From a virus (Duplodnaviria > Heunggongvirae > Uroviricota > Caudoviricetes), in IMG/VR virus record IMGVR_UViG_2654587711_000006: DNA of 6,590 nt. One strand, 5' to 3'. The position numbers and the translations under genes are program-made. This document shows positions 1 through 6,590 of the stretch, piece by piece (position 1 is the stretch's first letter; the number at the start of each line of letters is the position of its first letter). Below the pieces are notes generated by a model. It made no database searches and was not told where the DNA came from. It was given only the letters and a program-made list of their open reading frames with translations.

Positions 1-228
1 TCAATGTCGCGTAAAGGTAACTGTTACGACAACGCTCCGATGGAAAGCTTCTGGGGAACGCTGAAAAATGAGAGCCTGAGCCACTATCGTTTTAATAACC
101 GGGATGAAGCCATCTCAGTAATACGGGAATACATTGAGATTTTCTACAATCGTCAGCGTCGTCACTCTCGTCTGGGGAATATCTCCCCGGCAGCCTTCAG
201 GGAAAAATATCATCAGATGGCTGCTTAA
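1..228 (+). CDS. IS3-family transposase OrfB (DDE integrase), C-terminal fragment; 5' part is outside the window
   Basis: Translation ...SRKGNCYDNAPMESFWGTLKNE...YIEIFYNRQRRHSRLGNISPAAF matches the conserved C-terminal block of IS3-family OrfB proteins (GNCYDNA.ESFF..LK ... YNR.R.HS.LG..SP) as I recall them. The frame is open to the window edge. Confidence 0.8.
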   Translation, partial: SMSRKGNCYDNAPMESFWGTLKNESLSHYRFNNRDEAISVIREYIEIFYNRQRRHSRLGNISPAAFREKYHQMAA

Positions 229-271
229 AAAAAGAACAAATGGTAGTGTCCGCTATTGCCAGTACACCTCA
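1..271 (+). mobile_element. IS3-family insertion sequence, right (3') end only; the IS body lies left of the window
   Basis: Contains the C-terminal transposase ORF. The element ends in ...GTACACCTCA (terminal TCA is typical of IS3-family ends). The same ~270 bp recurs as a reverse complement at 6294-6590, and the match breaks exactly after CCTCA in both copies. Confidence 0.8.
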
Positions 272-413
272 GGGTATAAGGGGTTATGGCCACCGGACTA
301 CCAAACGGCTGCCAGCCCTCTTTCAGTTTATGTGTCAGCTTTTCCGCAAGATCTGACGGCGGCGCCGCCCTGACAACATCATAGTGTTTAAATGCCATGG
401 TTCTTTCCACCAT
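272..413 (-). CDS. Small hypothetical prophage protein, 3' end truncated by the left IS
   Basis: Minus-strand ORF starts at ATG 413 (alternative ATG at 398 giving MAFKHYDVVRAAPPSDLAEKLTHKLKEGWQPFGSPVAITPYT). The reading frame runs straight into the IS terminal sequence after ...PYT, so the native C-terminus is missing. Family not recognised with confidence. Confidence 0.4.
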
Positions 414-591
414 CTGAAAAATAATTCTTTAAAATACCTGACATGTAATACAGAAAAAACACAAAACCATACCTTAAATAAAAACCTGATTATCAAGCAG
501 ATATGCATGGATAAACTACAAGACGAGATATAAACCACCCTGCATTTAAATAAACAATAAACAACATCAGAAAAATAATTCTGCTCTATGG

Positions 592-618
592 TTTACATTC
601 AAAAATATCATTTATACT
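592..618 (+). promoter_or_regulatory. Candidate sigma70 promoter for the 659-994 ORF
   Basis: TTTACA at 592-597 and TATACT at 613-618 with a 15-nt spacer, about 40 nt upstream of the ATG, inside a very AT-rich divergent intergenic region. Spacer is shorter than optimal. Confidence 0.3.
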
Positions 619-658
619 TTTCAGAACATCACCAGCAAGGCATAAACAAGGAAACTAA

Positions 659-994
659 ATGAAGTGGATTGTGATTGATACAGTTATCCAGCCATCATGC
701 GGAATATCTTTTTCAGTCATATGGAGTAAAATAAAATTAATAATCTGGTATCAATCGGATGCTTTCTTACCTCCTGAAAGTATATTTACACTGACTCACA
801 CAGGCATCATGCTCAATAACAAAGTGCTACCTGTAACCATTTACAACGTAGTACCATTCAATAAAACATTCTGGAATTCAATCAAAAATAGCCAGGAATG
901 CCCTACAAATACAGATAACGTATTGAATGAATGCTTTAATAACCGTTGCACTCTGCAAATATGTCCTTATGGACTAAAACAACAAAGTCCATAA
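659..994 (+). CDS. Hypothetical protein (111 aa) in AT-rich island
   Basis: A 336-nt open frame in roughly 30 percent GC DNA, where random ORFs are short. Strong Shine-Dalgarno AAGGA 5 nt upstream of ATG 659. C-terminal Cys cluster (C-x12-C-x4-C-x4-C). Stop codon sits inside an 11-bp perfect inverted repeat. No family recognised. Confidence 0.35.
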
Positions 995-1009
995 GGAGTT
1001 TACTCACAT

Positions 1010-1050
1010 CTGACAAAATCAATATAAACAGCCCCTCCGGAGAGGGGCTG
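1010..1050 (-). terminator. Rho-independent terminator for minus-strand (late-direction) transcription
   Basis: Perfect 9-bp GC-rich stem CAGCCCCTC/GAGGGGCTG with a 4-nt loop at 1029-1050, followed on the minus strand by the U-rich tract TGTTTATATTGATTTTG. On the plus strand no T-tract follows. Confidence 0.6.
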
Positions 1051-1441
1051 GAGAGTGGCGCTATGTGCCATTGCATGGTGCCGGGTGCCTCCCGGTGAAT
1101 TCAGTACCAGCACCTGAATCCGCGATTATCCCATATACCTACTCGCTGATTGCCCCTCCGCACAGGGGGATTCACCATGCCAGTTTCTTTTAACAAACTC
1201 CCCGCAAACCAGACAACAGTCAACCGCCTGAATTGTGAAGTATTTAAAAATTTCTCCCGCTAACTGATACCCGGCTAACAGTCTGGCGTTTTCTTTTTCA
1301 GCAACGGGAAAGCAACAACCACCACACCCGCCACCAGCACACCGTCAGCCAGCACTGACATTATCCGGCTGCTGCAATGCCATTCACAAAAACAGTAAGC
1401 AATCACTTTTTACCGTAACAGGTGATAATCCAGATATGTAT

Positions 1442-1795
1442 CTACCCCAGATGAGTAATCCGAAGTTCATCCATACCACAGGTCCTGGCTATTCTGTTGT
1501 ACTCCTGAACAAGAGCAAATAATTCTGAATTAGCAACCATGAACTCATCGCAAACCCTCTGTATAGCATCACTATTCAGAATAATAACGTCTCTTCCCGA
1601 AAGACGATCAGGAGTACAGAACAAAACTGTCAAACGGCTGAAGGCCTTTGCTCGTGCTGCATTGACTATATCAATACGCTGCCTAAGGATGAAACACCCC
1701 GACGCCTCATCAATATTCACTCTACCCACACCATATGAATGATAAATATTTAATGCTGAAAAAACCATTAGACCGTATAACAAACACTCAATCAA
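1442..1795 (-). CDS. Hypothetical protein (117 aa from TTG; about 108 aa from internal ATG near 1768), moron downstream of Q and tRNAs
   Basis: Longest ORF between the tRNA cluster and the 1010-1050 terminator, co-oriented with late transcription. No recognisable family, signal peptide or catalytic motif by eye. Confidence 0.45.
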   Translation of the reverse strand: MIECLLYGLMVFSALNIYHSYGVGRVNIDEASGCFILRQRIDIVNAARAKAFSRLTVLFCTPDRLSGRDVIILNSDAIQRVCDEFMVANSELFALVQEYNRIARTCGMDELRITHLG

Positions 1796-1905
1796 TACTT
1801 AACAGAACTTTTATTTTTGACAAACATAAAATATTTTCAACAATATCCTGAGCCAGGTATATTTCAGTATAAGGCTCTGCCGGAAGGAATCTGGAAGAAT
1901 GAATA

Positions 1906-1982
1906 TGGCGCGCTGTACTGGATTCGAACCAGTGACCGATTGCTTAGAAGGCAATTGCTCTGTCCGGCTGAGCTAACAACGC
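1906..1982 (-). tRNA. tRNA-Arg (anticodon UCU), argO/argN-like phage tRNA
   Basis: Minus-strand sequence folds by hand into a full cloverleaf: acceptor GCGTTGT/ACAGCGC, D-stem GCTC/GAGC, anticodon stem ATTGC/GCAAT with loop CTTCTAA, T-arm ACTGG-TTCGAAT-CCAGT, discriminator G and encoded CCA. 77 nt. Confidence 0.85.
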
Positions 1983-1995
1983 TGAATACCGATAA

Positions 1996-2075
1996 TGGAC
2001 CGCCATCGGGGACCCGCCCCCGCACCAACAACCCTGTTATCGTGTCGTCTGCTCTTCCTGATAAGCTAATGGCGG
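1996..2075 (-). pseudogene. tRNA-like element, probably a degenerate tRNA gene
   Basis: Perfect 7-bp acceptor stem CCGCCAT/ATGGCGG followed by T and CCA, a D-arm GCTT/GAGC with a GG-containing loop, and a T-arm-like CGGGG/CCCCG stem. No canonical anticodon stem-loop and an atypical T-loop. Confidence 0.3.
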
Positions 2076-2082
2076 TTTGTGA

Positions 2083-2158
2083 TGGTGGCCCTTGCTGGAT
2101 TTGAACCAGCGACTTGGCGATTATGAGTCGCTCGCTCTCACCACTGAGCTAAAGGGCC
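2083..2158 (-). tRNA. tRNA-Ile2 (anticodon CAU, lysidine type), ileX/ileZ-like
   Basis: Hand-folded cloverleaf: acceptor GGCCCTT/AAGGGCC, D-stem GCTC/GAGC, anticodon loop CTCATAA, T-arm GCTGG-TTCAAAT-CCAGC, discriminator A and encoded CCA. 76 nt. Closely resembles E. coli ileX as recalled; a Met assignment cannot be fully excluded from anticodon alone. Confidence 0.8.
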
Positions 2159-2194
2159 GGGAGCAGAATAATAACGGTCCGTAATTAATTCCGC

Positions 2195-2223
2195 AATAAA
2201 AAACCCGCTCGGCGGCGGGTTGT
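2195..2223 (-). terminator. tR'-like rho-independent terminator between Q and the tRNAs
   Basis: Minus strand reads AACCCGC-CGCCGA-GCGGGTT followed by TTTTTATT, a 7-bp GC-rich stem plus U-tract. It lies about 40 nt downstream of the Q stop, the position of tR' in lambdoid late regions. Confidence 0.65.
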
Positions 2224-2260
2224 AGAAACTCTTCTAACGTCAGGCATAAAACGCCCATAG

Positions 2261-3115
2261 TTATGACGAATTTACCACAGATTCCGGAAAAATCAACCTA
2301 GTTACCTTTTTTAACTGCCGCTCAGCCCATGCTTCTTCAATATCAAACCGAGTCACCAGCGCATCATAGAATTTCTTAACTGTTTTTTCCCATGACGCGC
2401 GTGTTATCTGGTTTGTCACCTCGCATATAGCATTAAATGCCTCCGTTGATGGTAGTCTTTCATAGCCACGACCACCACAACGCTGGCAGTCTCTGATAAC
2501 AGGCATACCACGTTTTACCGACTCTTCACGATGAATGGCGACACCACGCCCACGGCAATCCTTACAGGCGGTGGAAACCTCACCCTTTCCGCCACACTCC
2601 GGACAGGCAACTTTTACCACCTCCCTGACTTTTTTCCATTCTTCCCAGTAAGACGGATACACACCTTTCGTACACTTTGCCCATACCGGCGGCTTACCAT
2701 CCGGATACTGGATCTTGTTTGTAAAAACCTCGCTTTCAATAAATTTTTTTCCGTGACAGCAGGGGCACTGTTTTTTGCTCGCCGCGCTACGGGCATAATC
2801 TTCAAACGCATACGAAGCCATAATACGCATCACTGCCGGTTTTATTTCTGCCGGGAGTTTTCTTAACGCCGCCACGCGATCACACCGACTGAGTGCATAT
2901 TCTGTCAGCAATTCTGTTGCCCGCTCTCTGTCATTCATACTAATGCCCATTTTCCCAAGGAACGCAGAAACCCCCATCTCAGCCCGATTCTGTGTCATGC
3001 CCTGCGCGGCCATCACATCAGTGATACTCAGCGCATCTTTCGACGTTGAGGCCGATGCATCAGTCAGGCCGGGGGATTTTGGGGAGTAGTATTTCGGTAA
3101 ATCTTCCAGTTTCAT
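2261..3115 (-). CDS. Late-gene antitermination protein Q-like (284 aa) with DnaJ-type zinc-finger repeats
   Basis: Canonical position after rusA and before the late promoter, tR' and tRNAs. N-terminus MKLEDLPKYYSPKSP... resembles QuuQ/phage-82-type Q proteins as recalled. Contains CPCCHGKK, CPECGGKG, CKDCRGRG and CQRCGGRG (CxxCxGxG-like). Start overlaps the rusA stop (ATGA). Confidence 0.7.
   Translation of the reverse strand: MKLEDLPKYYSPKSPGLTDASASTSKDALSITDVMAAQGMTQNRAEMGVSAFLGKMGISMNDRERATELLTEYALSRCDRVAALRKLPAEIKPAVMRIMASYAFEDYARSAASKKQCPCCHGKKFIESEVFTNKIQYPDGKPPVWAKCTKGVYPSYWEEWKKVREVVKVACPECGGKGEVSTACKDCRGRGVAIHREESVKRGMPVIRDCQRCGGRGYERLPSTEAFNAICEVTNQITRASWEKTVKKFYDALVTRFDIEEAWAERQLKKVTRLIFPESVVNSS
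2262..2300 (-). promoter_or_regulatory. Candidate late promoter (pR'-like) overlapping the 3' end of the Q gene
   Basis: Minus strand has TTGATT (2296-2291), a 16-nt spacer, then TAAATT (2274-2269), placing the start near the Q stop codon and about 65 nt upstream of the tR'-like terminator. A qut site cannot be resolved by eye. Confidence 0.4.
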
Positions 3116-3492
3116 TTTTTGACCTGCCCTTCAAGCATTATGGGATAAATCTTCACCCCCAGACGTCCACCAGATACTGGCTGAGCACGAACGATATTGA
3201 TTTCATCAAACTGCTCATCGTCCATTAGCAACCCCGCATGCGTCAGCGCATCCAGCGGCGCTTTCAGAATATTGTCCAGGTCACGGCGGCGCTTATCCGG
3301 TGGTTCTGCAATAATTTTTATTGCCAACCTTCCGGACAGGCTTAATTTCAGCCGCTGCTGGCGAACAATAAGCGCCACTGCCCGGCGATAACGCTCCCCG
3401 GCTTTTGATACAAAATATGTGCTGCCACGACGACGCCAGTAAGTGTTCACCGTCGGCGGGTAAGGTAAAACAAATTCTATGCGCTCGGTCAT
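3112..3492 (-). CDS. rusA: RusA-family Holliday junction resolvase (126 aa)
   Basis: Motifs shared with E. coli RusA as recalled: LPYPPTVNTYWR, PDKRRRDLDN, DALTHAG...DDEQ, GGRL. Size matches. Start abuts the DUF968 stop. Confidence 0.85.
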   Translation of the reverse strand: MTERIEFVLPYPPTVNTYWRRRGSTYFVSKAGERYRRAVALIVRQQRLKLSLSGRLAIKIIAEPPDKRRRDLDNILKAPLDALTHAGLLMDDEQFDEINIVRAQPVSGGRLGVKIYPIMLEGQVKK

Positions 3493-4551
3493 TTATGCTT
3501 TCCACTTCAGAACACCCGAATTTCTCGCGTGCATTAAAAAACGAATCAGCAACAACAGCTGACTGCCGTGTTTCTCTTCAAAATCTTTTACTCCGGCATG
3601 TAGTTCGTTACGGCATTTACGGCATAACGGAATAACAAACAAATCATCAGCCTTTGTTCCCATCCCTCCCAGTCCATGACCAATGATGTGATGCGGATCA
3701 TCTGCCTGATTGCCACACGTCATGCATTTCTGCGTTTTTACCCAGCGCGTGTATACAGGCATCTCTTCCCGTTGTGATTTCTGGCGCTGGAGATACTGAG
3801 CCGGTGACTCCGGATCAACGGCAATGCTGACCACCGTCTTTTCCTGTGGTGGGTTCTGTTGCTGGTGGACGTGAGGCAGTAACGCAATATTTTTTGTGCG
3901 CTGCTTCAGTATGCTGGTGGCTGTCTGCTCTCCCGGTATGATGTCGCTTTCACTGTACACAGAGCGAATTTTTTCCGCACGCAACCCCAGCGAACGACGT
4001 AATACCGCTTCCGGTAGCGCGTCCGCCACCTGATTGCGGACCGCCCACCAGGATAATTCAGCCAGAGATAATTCACGCTCCTGCGTACCGCTTATTGCGT
4101 GACCGATGACGTCAATCATCCATGCTGACAGGTTTTGATGAGCAAGTTGCTCGAGTGATTCGGATGTCTGGTCACGCAGCTGGTTGTCGCAGTGCCAGCA
4201 CAACACCATTGCGCCGGTACCATAACGGTGAATGACGGTTTCGCTGTGATGATAATCGCCGTGTGGCCACTGGCAGGATTTAATATGGCGCAACAGCCAG
4301 TCAGACAATGCACCAGCACCACCAGCAGCACGAATCACCCGTGCGTTACTGAAAAACGGCAGCAATGTTTTGTCTTCCACCAGCGGCTGGCGAGCGGCAG
4401 GAACGACCCCGGACGGCAGATTACGCATGCTTTTTGGTTCCGGCTCCACCAGTATTCTGCCGTTATGGAATGCTGACATTGATTCACGGCCTGGCTTAAC
4501 GATAACCAGACCGAGTTCCGGTACCAGAACAGGTCGAAGTAATACCCGCAC
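3493..4551 (-). CDS. DUF968-like prophage protein (YdfU-like, 352 aa) with Cys/His HNH-like motif
   Basis: Long ORF with C-terminal CMTCGNQADDPHHIIGHGLGG...CRKCRNELH cluster. Position upstream of rusA and Q matches Qin-like prophages. GGAGG sits 5 nt upstream of ATG 4551; an internal ATG (MSAFHNG..., near 4479) is an alternative start. Confidence 0.6.
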   Translation of the reverse strand: MRVLLRPVLVPELGLVIVKPGRESMSAFHNGRILVEPEPKSMRNLPSGVVPAARQPLVEDKTLLPFFSNARVIRAAGGAGALSDWLLRHIKSCQWPHGDYHHSETVIHRYGTGAMVLCWHCDNQLRDQTSESLEQLAHQNLSAWMIDVIGHAISGTQERELSLAELSWWAVRNQVADALPEAVLRRSLGLRAEKIRSVYSESDIIPGEQTATSILKQRTKNIALLPHVHQQQNPPQEKTVVSIAVDPESPAQYLQRQKSQREEMPVYTRWVKTQKCMTCGNQADDPHHIIGHGLGGMGTKADDLFVIPLCRKCRNELHAGVKDFEEKHGSQLLLLIRFLMHARNSGVLKWKA

Positions 4552-4626
4552 ATTACCTCCAGATCCGTTGCTGGAATGTGCGGGACGGACGCGTTGGCCG
4601 TTCGGAGTAAGGGAGCCTGACGGAGA

Positions 4627-4911
4627 TTATCCAGTGACGGTAGTCGAGGCTAAGGGCTTTTTTAACCTCGCATCCGCGCCTGCGGTAACACTGAATGAGC
4701 CATTCGGCCTGTTCTTCAGTGCATGGGGGATGCTGGTACCAATCAGATTTAAATGCGTGAGAGCGCCGCCCGTGCCTGCTGGCAAAGACGGCTGAATTAT
4801 CAGAATTGTGTAGTCTGGAAGGCAGTGGCTGACAATAGCGCCATTCTCAACGCGCACAGTATAGAGGCCATCTTCACTAAAAATTTCACGTAATTCTTCG
4901 ATTTTCATCAA
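4627..4911 (-). CDS. Small hypothetical protein at the position of rem in Qin-like prophages; possibly frameshifted
   Basis: ATG near 4908 preceded by AAGGA. The N-terminal 40 aa (MKIEELREIFSEDGLYTVRVENGAIVSHCLPDY...) look protein-like, but the C-terminal half is Ser/Thr/Gly/Ala/Pro-rich like an off-frame product. The -1 frame is open for about 93 codons and ends in TAA overlapping the DUF968 ATG. Confidence 0.4.
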   Translation of the reverse strand: MMKIEELREIFSEDGLYTVRVENGAIVSHCLPDYTILIIQPSLPAGTGGALTHLNLIGTSIPHALKNRPNGSFSVTAGADARLKKPLASTTVTG

Positions 4912-4990
4912 CAGAATCCTTCCAGATAAATAGCACTCCCCTGTTCGGGGTCCATCCCTCTTCTCCCTGCGCGCTACTTAAGTATTTTTG

Positions 4991-5020
4991 ATTCTATTCC
5001 GGCACCATCTAAAACTTCAA
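4991..5020 (-). promoter_or_regulatory. Candidate sigma70 promoter for the 4911 to 2261 operon
   Basis: Minus strand TTGAAG (5020-5015), 18-nt spacer, TAGAAT (4996-4991), located between the hok terminator and the downstream ORF. Confidence 0.35.
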
Positions 5021-5026
5021 ACGCGT

Positions 5027-5060
5027 TGAAAATAAAAACAAAAACCCGCCGAAGCGGGTT
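5027..5060 (-). terminator. Rho-independent terminator at the 3' end of the hok mRNA
   Basis: Hairpin AACCCGC-CGAA-GCGGGTT (5043-5060) followed on the minus strand by TTTTTGTTTTTATTTT. Gives an mRNA of about 420 nt from the inferred 5' end, typical of hok mRNAs. Confidence 0.65.
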
Positions 5061-5128
5061 AAGTGTGGGTGCATTGAGGATGCCTGACCCATCAGAGGTG
5101 GCGAGGGATTTCTCCCCCGCCTGGTCTC

Positions 5129-5284
5129 TTACTCCTCAGGTTCGTAAGCTGTGAAGACAGCGACCTCCGTCTGGCCGGTTCGAATTCGTACCTCGCAGAG
5201 GTCTTTCCTCGTTACCAGTGCCGTCACTATGACGGTTAAACAGATGACGATCAGGGCGATTAACATCGCCTTTTGCTGCTTCAT
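5129..5284 (-). CDS. hokD: Hok-family membrane toxin (51 aa), HokD/RelF-like
   Basis: Translation MKQQKAMLIALIVICLTVIVTALVTRKDLCEVRIRTGQTEVAVFTAYEPEE matches HokD (RelF) of E. coli K-12 as I recall it: single TM helix and conserved C...C-E-(I/V)-R motif. The ORF-track entry 5129-5341 is an in-frame upstream extension. Confidence 0.8.
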   Translation of the reverse strand: MKQQKAMLIALIVICLTVIVTALVTRKDLCEVRIRTGQTEVAVFTAYEPEE

Positions 5285-5490
5285 AGCCTGCTTCTCCTTG
5301 CCTTTCGGCACGTAAGAGGCTAACCTAGATTTGCCGTTCATAGATTGAGCCTCAGATTAATGTTAAGCGTCTTGCCGGACGCGTAATGTTAACTGGGGCT
5401 TTTCTCTATCTGCCTTTTGGTGTTCATGCCTGAGACAGATAGCCTCAAGCACCCGCTGCAATTCTACTTAACTCTCCTTTTCCCGCAAAC
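5285..5490 (-). promoter_or_regulatory. hok mRNA leader with upstream promoter (mok-like frame, sok-target region)
   Basis: Minus-strand GCTTGAGGCTATCTGTCTCAGG..., ...AGCCCCAGTTAACATTA... and ...AGCCTCTTACGTGCCGAAAGGCAAGGAGAAGCAGGCTATGAAG parallel the plasmid R1 hok mRNA 5' end, leader and mok/hok start as recalled. TTTGCG/TAGAAT promoter-like hexamers just upstream (about 5487-5459). An intact sok antisense gene could not be delimited. Confidence 0.55.
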
Positions 5491-5495
5491 CGTTT

Positions 5496-5579
5496 TTATC
5501 CCCAGCGGCAAATCGAATACACCACCAGCGCCACCGCCATCGCAATTCCTACCGTTGTTAATGCTTCAGGCCAGGTCAT
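5496..5579 (-). CDS. Candidate 27-aa hydrophobic peptide, translationally coupled to the 114-aa gene
   Basis: ATG overlaps the stop of the upstream gene (ATGA); GGAGG lies 10 nt upstream. Translation [27 protein letters not shown] has one hydrophobic stretch. Below the ORF-track size cutoff; could be fortuitous. Confidence 0.3.
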
Positions 5580-5920
5580 CGTAAAATATCCTCCACGCTT
5601 ATCAGTCCGTTCCGCTCCAGATAACTCATCGCCTTATCCGGTAATTTGCAGTCTGGCTTCGCTTTCCTCAGTTGCCAGGTTAACTGCTTTACCAGCATGG
5701 TTAACTCATCGACCAGACGCTGATATCCCACTGGTTTGTATTCATGCAATTTACCGGCTGGCTCTGCTGCCAGCGATACCAGTGCGATTTCCAGAACAGC
5801 AATATCCATCTTATATGTGCGGATGATGTCATGGTCGATTGTGCCCGGTATGCACAGTCTCTGTGCTTCAATAGTCTCCTCTGCGTGAGCTATTAACTGC
5901 TCTCTGGTAAAAGTCGTCAT
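5576..5920 (-). CDS. Hypothetical protein (114 aa), paralogous at its N-terminus to the upstream 55-aa ORF
   Basis: ORF with ATG overlapping the upstream stop (ATGA). Shares MTTFTREQ with the neighbour's MTTITKER and [11 protein letters not shown] with its [11 protein letters not shown]. Carries a C-terminal extension of about 56 aa. Not similar to RelE, ParE, MazF or other toxin families I can recall. Confidence 0.6.
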
Positions 5921-6084
5921 GCCGTAGCCCCTTCTTGATATTTTTCAAACCAGAACACAACCGGCTCTGCTTCCAGCGATGCCAGCGCAATCCGTGCCAG
6001 TTCCATTTGTTCACCACGGGTAAGCCCGTTTTCAAGCGGGTTTTTAATGAACAATTCAATACGTTCTTTGGTAATAGTGGTCAT
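5917..6084 (-). CDS. Hypothetical small protein (55 aa), not in the ORF track
   Basis: Hand translation: [62 protein letters not shown] 6-7 nt upstream of ATG 6084. The stop overlaps the next start. Occupies the frame opposite the spurious track ORFs 5868-6059 and 5935-6213. Confidence 0.5.
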
Positions 6085-6094
6085 GTGTTACTCC

Positions 6095-6293
6095 TTAACC
6101 CGCAGTGCTTTCAACTGATGAGGGGAACAAAATCTTTTCATCAAACCCTGCATTCATATCATGAACAGCAACACACCAATCCATCGACGAACGATTATCA
6201 AGAGCCTCCATGATTTCATCCATGCGGCGTAGGTCATACAGGTAAATGCTTTTATCGCCAATGGTGTAAAAGCCAATTTTTTTCGGTGATGGA
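6095..6293 (-). CDS. Hypothetical protein, 5' end truncated by the right IS (C-terminal about 65 aa retained)
   Basis: The open frame exits the IS terminal sequence and continues ...PSPKKIGFYTIGDKSIYLYDLRRMDEIMEALDNRSSMDWCVAVHDMNAGFDEKILFPSSVESTAG. The track's start MVVSAIASTPH is encoded by IS end sequence. Its stop is followed within 10 nt by the RBS and ATG of the 55-aa gene. Confidence 0.45.
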
Positions 6294-6590
6294 TGAGGTG
6301 TACTGGCAATAGCGGACACTACCATTTGTTCTTTTTTTAAGCAGCCATCTGATGATATTTTTCCCTGAAGGCTGCCGGGGAGATATTCCCCAGACGAGAG
6401 TGACGACGCGGACGATTGTAGAAAATCTCAATGTATTCCCGTATTACTGAGATGGCTTCATCCCGGTTATTAAAACGATAGTGGCTCAGGCTCTCATTTT
6501 TCAGCGTTCCCCAGAAGCTTTCCATCGGAGCGTTGTCGTAACAGTTACCTTTACGCGACATTGATGTTTTCAGACCAGACTGCTCCTGTA
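6294..6590 (-). mobile_element. IS3-family insertion sequence, right (3') end only, inverted relative to the copy at 1-271; body lies right of the window
   Basis: Reverse complement of 6294-6562 matches 4-271 with a single mismatch visible (CAG vs CCG in the transposase, Q to P). The terminal TGAGGTG... is the complement of the ...CACCTCA end. Confidence 0.8.
6337..6590 (-). CDS. IS3-family transposase OrfB, C-terminal fragment; continues beyond the window
   Basis: Same 74-aa C-terminal sequence as the left copy apart from one residue. The frame stays open upstream of the listed Met to the window edge. Confidence 0.8.
   Translation of the reverse strand, partial: QEQSGLKTSMSRKGNCYDNAPMESFWGTLKNESLSHYRFNNRDEAISVIREYIEIFYNRPRRHSRLGNISPAAFREKYHQMAA

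Follow-up and report, generated by a model that had tools for sequence, protein, structure and literature searches.

The AT-rich island at positions 414–1000 of the window, by which we mean the whole stretch of 6590 bases analysed here, is very probably a self-contained prophage moron carrying iraL, a gene for an RssB anti-adaptor of the IraM family. The gene is already known and its function was shown by published experiment, so finding it here is a rediscovery; it has been characterised in CFT073 and Shigella sonnei, and its recovery adds no new biology. It does validate the initial annotation, which had picked out a real gene and foreseen its start site to within one base. Several side leads could merit a small follow-up, namely the slot shared with stx and the stx2-linked copies, the cysteines of the protein tail, a PhoP-box-like site, and the convergence with an STnc100 gene.

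GC content is 0.322 over 414–1000 against 0.491 for the remaining prophage DNA of the window, with 0.286 in the intergenic part (414–658) and 0.345 in the ORF (659–994). The lowest-GC segment of 587 nt within all 6590 bases begins at position 415, and the AT-rich island first placed at about 420–1000 is thus indeed the lowest-GC stretch of the window (0.32 versus 0.49). Separate acquisition of this DNA, also proposed from the start, is borne out by phage JLK-2012 (L014), which has both flanks and an unrelated 171 bp instead of 392–1063. When this phage was compared with the window by BLAST, the flanks matched at 97.6% (269–391) and 92.9% (1064–1374), and the interior was replaced. On this comparison and on GC content (0.323 for 392–1028), we delimit an exchangeable cassette at 392–1063 that comprises the AT-rich promoter region and iraL.

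Three properties expected of a moron were considered. Positions 392–1063 are present or absent between conserved phage flanks and deviate in base composition. The cassette also has its own promoter, whose hexamers match the consensus at 10 of 12 positions and lie 7 nt upstream of the published start, and a segment spanning −100 to +33 sufficed for expression at attTn7. As for a terminator of its own, the plus strand downstream of 994 has no terminator-like site. Because the cassette is oriented against the Q-dependent late operon, iraL would be expressible in the lysogen independently of phage late transcription.

Identity and conservation of the gene

The iraL coding sequence (659–994, plus strand) starts with ATG, encodes 111 aa, and is the sole ORF longer than 67 aa in 414–1000; its assignment draws on NCBIfam, PDB entry 8twd, the CFT073 match, and dN/dS. 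As first described, it runs against the direction of late transcription, with Q, RusA, DUF968, both tRNAs, and DUF1737 all on the minus strand.

Only two points speak for a chance open frame in a non-coding AT-rich spacer: phage DNA between genes, when AT-rich, commonly codes for nothing, and a Pfam-A hmmscan with IraL and two relatives as queries found nothing significant at thresholds up to E = 10. Shuffling of 414–1000 argues otherwise, in keeping with the early remark that so long an ORF is unlikely to arise by chance in AT-rich DNA: among 20 000 shuffles, the share with an ORF of at least 111 aa was 0.26% under the mononucleotide model and 0.67% under the first-order Markov model (P 0.003–0.007). 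Together with the matches to a curated family and a solved structure, dN/dS well below 1, and published protein-level evidence, this refutes the chance frame, to which we attach a negligible probability.

A profile search of the 111-aa protein, which the initial annotation had proposed as a check, matched the curated family NCBIfam NF007393 ('anti-adapter protein IraM') with 162 bits against a cutoff of 121, residues 1–110 aligning to profile positions 1–113 of 114. With phmmer, IraL residues 1–78 matched the crystallised IraM(1–78) chain (PDB 8twd_A) at E = 6.3e-31. An AlphaFold2 model of IraL built on a 16-sequence alignment had a mean pLDDT of 59.9, with the tail below 50, and Foldseek of this low-confidence model returned 8twd_A as its only significant match (E = 7e-6, 57% identity), at a TM-score of only 0.37–0.46, which makes the fold evidence weak. 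Precomputed tables of two other tools list PF11183.15 (PmrD) for IraL/IraM proteins, unlike the local Pfam-A scan.

PMC4045071 assigns a gene to the IraL clade when its entire coding region is at least 95% identical to CFT073 iraL in nucleotide sequence. The window gene is 99.4% identical to CFT073 iraL (c1429, WP_000871291.1; 334/336 nt and 110/111 aa), and its flanks are 99.35% identical over 269–1500. For the upstream region, the clade is defined by at least 96% identity to CFT073 including the mapped start-site sequence; here we found 2 differences in 130 nt, and the RACE sequence with one mismatch. Compared at the sequence level, the ORF is iraL and not iraM proper, and IraL is a paralogue of K-12 IraM.

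RefSeq labels every copy 'anti-adapter protein IraM', and this naming by RefSeq/PGAP is one reason to consider the gene an orthologue of K-12 iraM, induced through PhoP/PhoQ under Mg2+ starvation, and not the log-phase IraL. The other is a PhoP-box-like repeat at 547–563 whose counterpart at the same position in a close paralogue scores 12/12. Against this, identity is 60.7% to K-12 IraM versus 99.1% to CFT073 IraL, the upstream regions cannot be aligned with that of K-12 iraM, and the K-12 gene lies beside e14 whereas the window gene lies in a lambdoid late region. In addition, the PhoP-like site is not significant alone (P = 0.058) and sits at −79 to −63, and the NCBIfam model name applies at the subfamily level. 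We consider orthology to iraM highly improbable, and retain iraL as the identity of the gene.

The single amino acid difference from CFT073 IraL is L74S (codon 74, window 878–880). Only this allele has serine at that position; of 15 further family members, 13 have leucine and 2 isoleucine. Position 74 lies in a helix, beside position 75, which in IraM contacts the RssB C-terminal domain. S. sonnei chromosomes such as HE616528.1 encode an identical protein with S74, which occurs in 4016 blocks of a contig index, in which the eight longest contigs listed are chromosome-sized NCBI assemblies.

Selection was assessed on a set comprising the window gene, that of phage 640R1 (97% aa identity), an 88% variant, a 75% variant, the phage 2851 paralogue (74%), and K-12 iraM (61%). 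All pairs gave dN/dS of 0.10–0.28, with similarly low values in tail residues 79–107; judged by these substitution patterns, iraL, including its Cys-rich tail, is under purifying selection. The gene is present in 1446 of 5426 complete Escherichia coli genomes (∼27%), in 1439 of them with ≥ 80% coverage and in 7 below that. Sampled copies with a 1-nt length difference have an intact ORF, so the indel lies outside the coding sequence. Loss of the reading frame in related sequences had been named at the outset as an observation that would count against a gene; the frame is kept (dN/dS 0.10–0.28), and the sampled E. coli copies are all intact except one split by IS1A (E. coli AR_0058, L028 1600–2712). 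Separately, an iraM-type gene in E. coli ECGI0523 reads as only 52 aa (L025 3001–3318).

The four C-terminal cysteines pointed out in the initial annotation are C81, C92, C97, and C102, with C14 in addition. In 16 family members, the most distant at 53% identity, C81, P82, C92, C97, C102, P103, and G105 never vary; C14 does. In the IraM structure paper (PMC10844676), which provides the only crystal structure, the tail was removed as proteolytically unstable and called less conserved, and AlphaFold2 with the 16-sequence alignment gave no confident model of the Cys tail (pLDDT <50). It is a rather speculative idea, which we think improbable, that the tail, with its spacing C81-x10-C92-x4-C97-x4-C102, binds a metal or forms disulfides and so acts as a switch controlling how stable or active IraL is. 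If true, the anti-adaptor itself would be a redox or metal sensor and not a passively expressed inhibitor.

Promoter, leader, and transcript end

The AT-rich region 414–658 (plus strand, GC 0.286) holds the iraL promoter and 5′ UTR, as complementation in CFT073 also indicates; the complementing CFT073 segment from −100 to +33 relative to the start corresponds to window 526–658. The published 5′-RACE sequence ACATCACCAGCAAGGCATAAACAAGGAAACCA equals window 626–657 with one mismatch and places the start of iraL transcription at 626 on the plus strand, where a start near 625 had been predicted. Upstream of it we assign, as the best sigma-70 match, a −35 hexamer TTTACA (592–597) and, 7 nt before the mapped start site, a −10 hexamer TATACT (613–618), both on the plus strand, separated by 15 nt and matching sigma-70 at 10 of 12 positions. 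A Shine-Dalgarno AAGGA (648–652, plus), read from the sequence, stands 6 nt before the ATG, and the ribosome-binding site and promoter-like hexamers described in the initial annotation are thus both recovered. The leader is 33 nt long and the 5′ UTR unstructured (z = +1.56). In the 130 nt before the ATG, the 2 differences from CFT073 fall at 625 (−1) and at 656, in the spacer between Shine-Dalgarno and ATG. Phage 640R1 carries C596T within the −35 hexamer, a change that fits the '−35 point mutation' reported for iraL2 (PMC4045071).

The region had first been called a divergent promoter region. A plus-strand promoter is supported and the gene orientation is divergent, but promoter scans found no second, minus-strand promoter in 414–658.

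A PhoP-box-like direct repeat, TGTTTA-N5-TATTTA, occupies 547–563 on the minus strand, at −79 to −63 from the iraL start site, and matches at 11 of 12 positions (P = 0.058 versus shuffles), which we treat as a lead only. At the same position the match is 12/12 upstream of an stx-linked paralogue (L015, about −113 from the ATG) and 11/12 in phage 2851; the repeat is absent from the 88% variant. Scans of 414–700 for a Fur box, a LexA box, and a 10-mer H-NS motif did no better than shuffles (P = 0.97, 0.96, and 0.51, respectively). Given the Fur-box result, the rise of IraL reported in a fur mutant is probably indirect. H-NS silencing of the island is suggested by just two things, its composition (GC 0.29–0.35) and the analogy to iraM; according to the title of Battesti 2012, H-NS controls iraM and iraD.

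At the other end of the gene, a perfect 12-bp inverted repeat with a 10-nt loop (964–997, plus) encloses the last codons and the stop, as seen in the sequence and assessed by simulations and folding. Its arms are TCCTTATGGACT (964–975) and AGTCCATAAGGA (986–997), and the stop codon TAA (992–994) lies inside the right arm. The initial annotation had described an 11-bp inverted repeat at 964–998 holding the stop; the repeat is real and the stop is inside it, but the arms are 12 bp and the coordinates were off by 1–2 bases, the 11-bp core corresponding to 965–975/986–996.

A functional RNA element of iraL, whether terminator, 3′-end stabiliser, or protein-binding palindrome, would account for several features of this repeat. 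A perfect 12-bp repeat of such kind occurred in 0 of 300 Markov simulations of the window and so is far beyond chance, the hairpin folds stably as RNA (−17.5 kcal/mol, z = −5.8), it is identical in all IraL-clade copies examined, and the plus strand downstream of iraL has no other terminator. Yet two relatives, L018 (88% identical) and L015 (75% identical), carry uncompensated changes in both arms, leaving −5.8 and −9.1 kcal/mol, and the 107-aa paralogues have no hairpin; moreover, the Pro-Tyr-Gly codons (CCN TAY GGN) are partly self-complementary. Judged by the features of a Rho-independent terminator (a G+C-rich stem, a loop of 3–8 nt, then a U-tract), the hairpin is not an intrinsic one: it has 5 G-C pairs of 12, a 10-nt loop, and downstream GUUUACUC with 4 U in 8, and the terminator scan was silent. 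A functional element of this kind is therefore a minority possibility in our estimate, and for want of compensatory conservation we rejected a conserved RNA element as the principal interpretation. The simplest reading is that a lineage-specific local inverted duplication could have added the codons QQSP and the stop. Since the inverted repeat is not conserved in relatives, it lends little support to the gene call.

A scan found no canonical terminator after iraL on the plus strand. The GC hairpin at 1029–1050 was rejected as an iraL terminator, as its T-run is on the minus strand only and belongs to STnc100.

Prophage setting

The layout of Q, tRNAs, DUF3927, iraL on the opposite strand, DUF1737, holin, and lysozyme is found in CFT073, E. 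coli 042, and phage vB_EcoS-640R1. In lambdoid phages, the DUF1737/nanS-p gene normally lies within the Q-dependent late operon. In the window, Q occupies 2261–3115 on the minus strand. A strong terminator-like hairpin with a T-run at 2202–2221 (minus), just after Q, is a candidate for the tR′ of the late operon. Downstream of Q are a tRNA-Arg(TCT) and a CAT-anticodon tRNA (1906–1982 and 2083–2158, minus strand); the second tRNA is called Met by ARAGORN, but its positional counterpart in E. coli 042 carries the annotation Ile. Between the tRNAs and a DUF3927/TciB-like gene at 1275–1406 lies a 117-aa ORF (1442–1795, minus) corresponding to phrog_2873 (unknown function, E = 4e-70), which had no Pfam or NCBIfam match. 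Farther along, a hok/sok type I toxin-antitoxin was recognised at 5129–5454 (minus; Rfam sok, 112 bits, 5279–5454), with a HokD-like ORF within 5129–5341.

On one side of iraL, an STnc100-family prophage sRNA gene spans 1020–1209 on the minus strand (Rfam RF02076, 132 bits against a gathering score of 47, full length 1–206), ending in a terminator formed by the GC-rich hairpin 1029–1050 with its U-tract. The two genes are convergent, with ∼26 nt between the iraL stop and the 3′ end of the sRNA. A partial 'hypothetical protein' pseudo-CDS that PGAP annotates in E. coli 042 and CFT073 (window ∼1065–1190, plus) overlaps the STnc100 gene and is perhaps not truly coding.

On the other side, a 5′ fragment of a DUF1737/nanS-p esterase gene (225–413, minus; Pfam DUF1737, E = 1.5e-15) is cut by IS600 after ∼48 codons; other E. 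coli have an uninterrupted copy at this site, encoding a full-length SASA esterase. The IS600 end that truncates the prophage occupies 1–268 on the plus strand (rve_2/rve_3 domains, 100% identity to a pO157 site annotated IS600), and homology to CFT073 begins at 269. A second, inverted IS600 copy lies at 6294–6590, and the prophage segment bracketed by the two is 269–6293. The window is 98% identical to S. sonnei loci over 1–3484, and the left IS600/DUF1737 junction is common to the S. sonnei loci L003–L010; beyond RusA, those loci have an IS21 element and the window has DUF968. iraL thus persists in a decayed prophage remnant bracketed by two IS600 copies.

Such surroundings could mean that the gene itself is a decaying relic, its protein inactivated by L74S: the lysis and structural genes of the prophage have been lost to IS600, S74 is unique at a conserved hydrophobic position, and rare disrupted copies exist, for example the IS1A-interrupted gene of E. 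coli AR_0058. The ORF, promoter, start site, and Shine-Dalgarno are nonetheless intact, and the 4016 contig-index blocks with the S74 protein include chromosome-sized NCBI assemblies among the longest listed. Deletion of iraL in S. sonnei, moreover, lowers log-phase RpoS (PMC4045071); the parent of that mutant may carry S74. We regard a relic as very unlikely, and infer that the L74S allele of the window is active as an RssB anti-adaptor.

Function and comparison with known systems

iraL came to light when CFT073 was screened for effectors of the RpoS level (Hryckowian 2014, PMC4045071). In that study, IraL binds RssB and blocks RpoS delivery to ClpXP; deletion of iraL in CFT073 shortened the RpoS half-life from ∼5 to ∼2.5 min, and −100 to +33 plus iraL, in single copy at attTn7, complemented the deletion. 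IraL copurified with RssB and interacted in a two-hybrid assay with the RssB N-terminal domain only, and in S. sonnei, deletion of iraL resulted in less log-phase RpoS (PMC4045071). Later work reported more IraL in a CFT073 fur mutant and a 1.6 log2 increase of iraL (c1429) mRNA at 37°C relative to 23°C.

In the IraM-RssB structure (PMC10844676), IraM residues 1–78 form a PmrD-like beta-barrel that contacts both RssB domains and the linker. We compared these contact residues with IraL by eye in alignments. All five cluster I contacts (RssB N-terminal domain) are identical in IraL; cluster II (RssB C-terminal domain) retains 3 of 5, with T13S and L75I, and cluster III (linker) 2 of 4, with H63N and I64V. 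This pattern appears to fit, without proving, the reported binding of IraL to the N-terminal domain only.

For the window, the course of events may be pictured as follows. The sigma-70 promoter (TTTACA-15 nt-TATACT) would drive transcription from 626, and the short unstructured leader with AAGGA would allow the 111-aa IraL to be translated. Through its PmrD-like N-terminal beta-barrel (residues 1–78), IraL would bind the adaptor RssB, and RssB so bound would be unable to hand RpoS to ClpXP, with RpoS stabilised even in exponential growth. By raising RpoS in exponentially growing uropathogenic E. coli and Shigella, IraL influences stress resistance and possibly niche adaptation.

The closest known counterpart is CFT073 IraL (c1429, formerly YcgW), which shares the promoter and start-site sequence, 110/111 aa, and 334/336 nt. 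Its neighbours are also alike, with DUF3927 and STnc100 on one side and DUF1737/nanS-p on the other, downstream of Q and the tRNAs of a lambdoid prophage. Unlike CFT073, the window has L74S, A for G at −1, and T for C in the spacer between Shine-Dalgarno and ATG, and the IS600 cut has removed the lysis and structural genes present in the CFT073 prophage.

K-12 IraM (b1160; 8TWD, PMC10844676), the anti-adaptor of Mg2+ starvation, belongs to the same family (NF007393) and shares the PmrD-like N-terminal beta-barrel, the conserved cluster I contacts with RssB, and the invariant tail C81-x10-C92-x4-C97-x4-C102. It differs in having 107 aa and 60.7% identity, without the QQSP extension and the stop-codon hairpin, in an unrelated promoter (reported to be PhoP- and H-NS-controlled), in its own canonical terminator, and in its place beside e14. 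IraM also engages both domains of RssB; for IraL, two-hybrid assays showed binding to the N-terminal one only. Salmonella RssC belongs with both to one iraL-iraM-rssC family (PMC4045071), but is ∼49% identical to iraL and restricted to Salmonella (PMC4045071). PmrD, the PhoP-PmrA connector (PDB 4HN7), has the same fold as IraM residues 1–78 (PMC10844676), but its partner is phospho-PmrA and it has no Cys-rich tail.

IraL-like genes that are 73–75% identical, intact, and at dN/dS ∼0.1–0.2 also occur just downstream of stx2B on the opposite strand, in phage 2851 (L012 5001–5324), in L015 (3206–3541), and in L016 and L017. The late-operon gene that follows them encodes a DUF1737-SASA esterase in L015–L017. 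Such copies are present in 41 phage records and are found among Stx2c phages and part of the Stx2a phages; most of the listed rows have no annotation there. A text search of the literature found no paper describing these stx2-linked paralogues.

As a cassette, the island resembles the lambdoid phage morons of the Q-to-lysis interval, such as stxAB. Like them, it has its own promoter and deviant base composition, is present or absent between conserved flanks, and occupies the same slot downstream of Q and the tRNAs. It departs from them in that no dedicated terminator was recognised for the iraL cassette, and in its orientation: iraL points against the late operon and so, unlike stx, should not be driven by Q antitermination.
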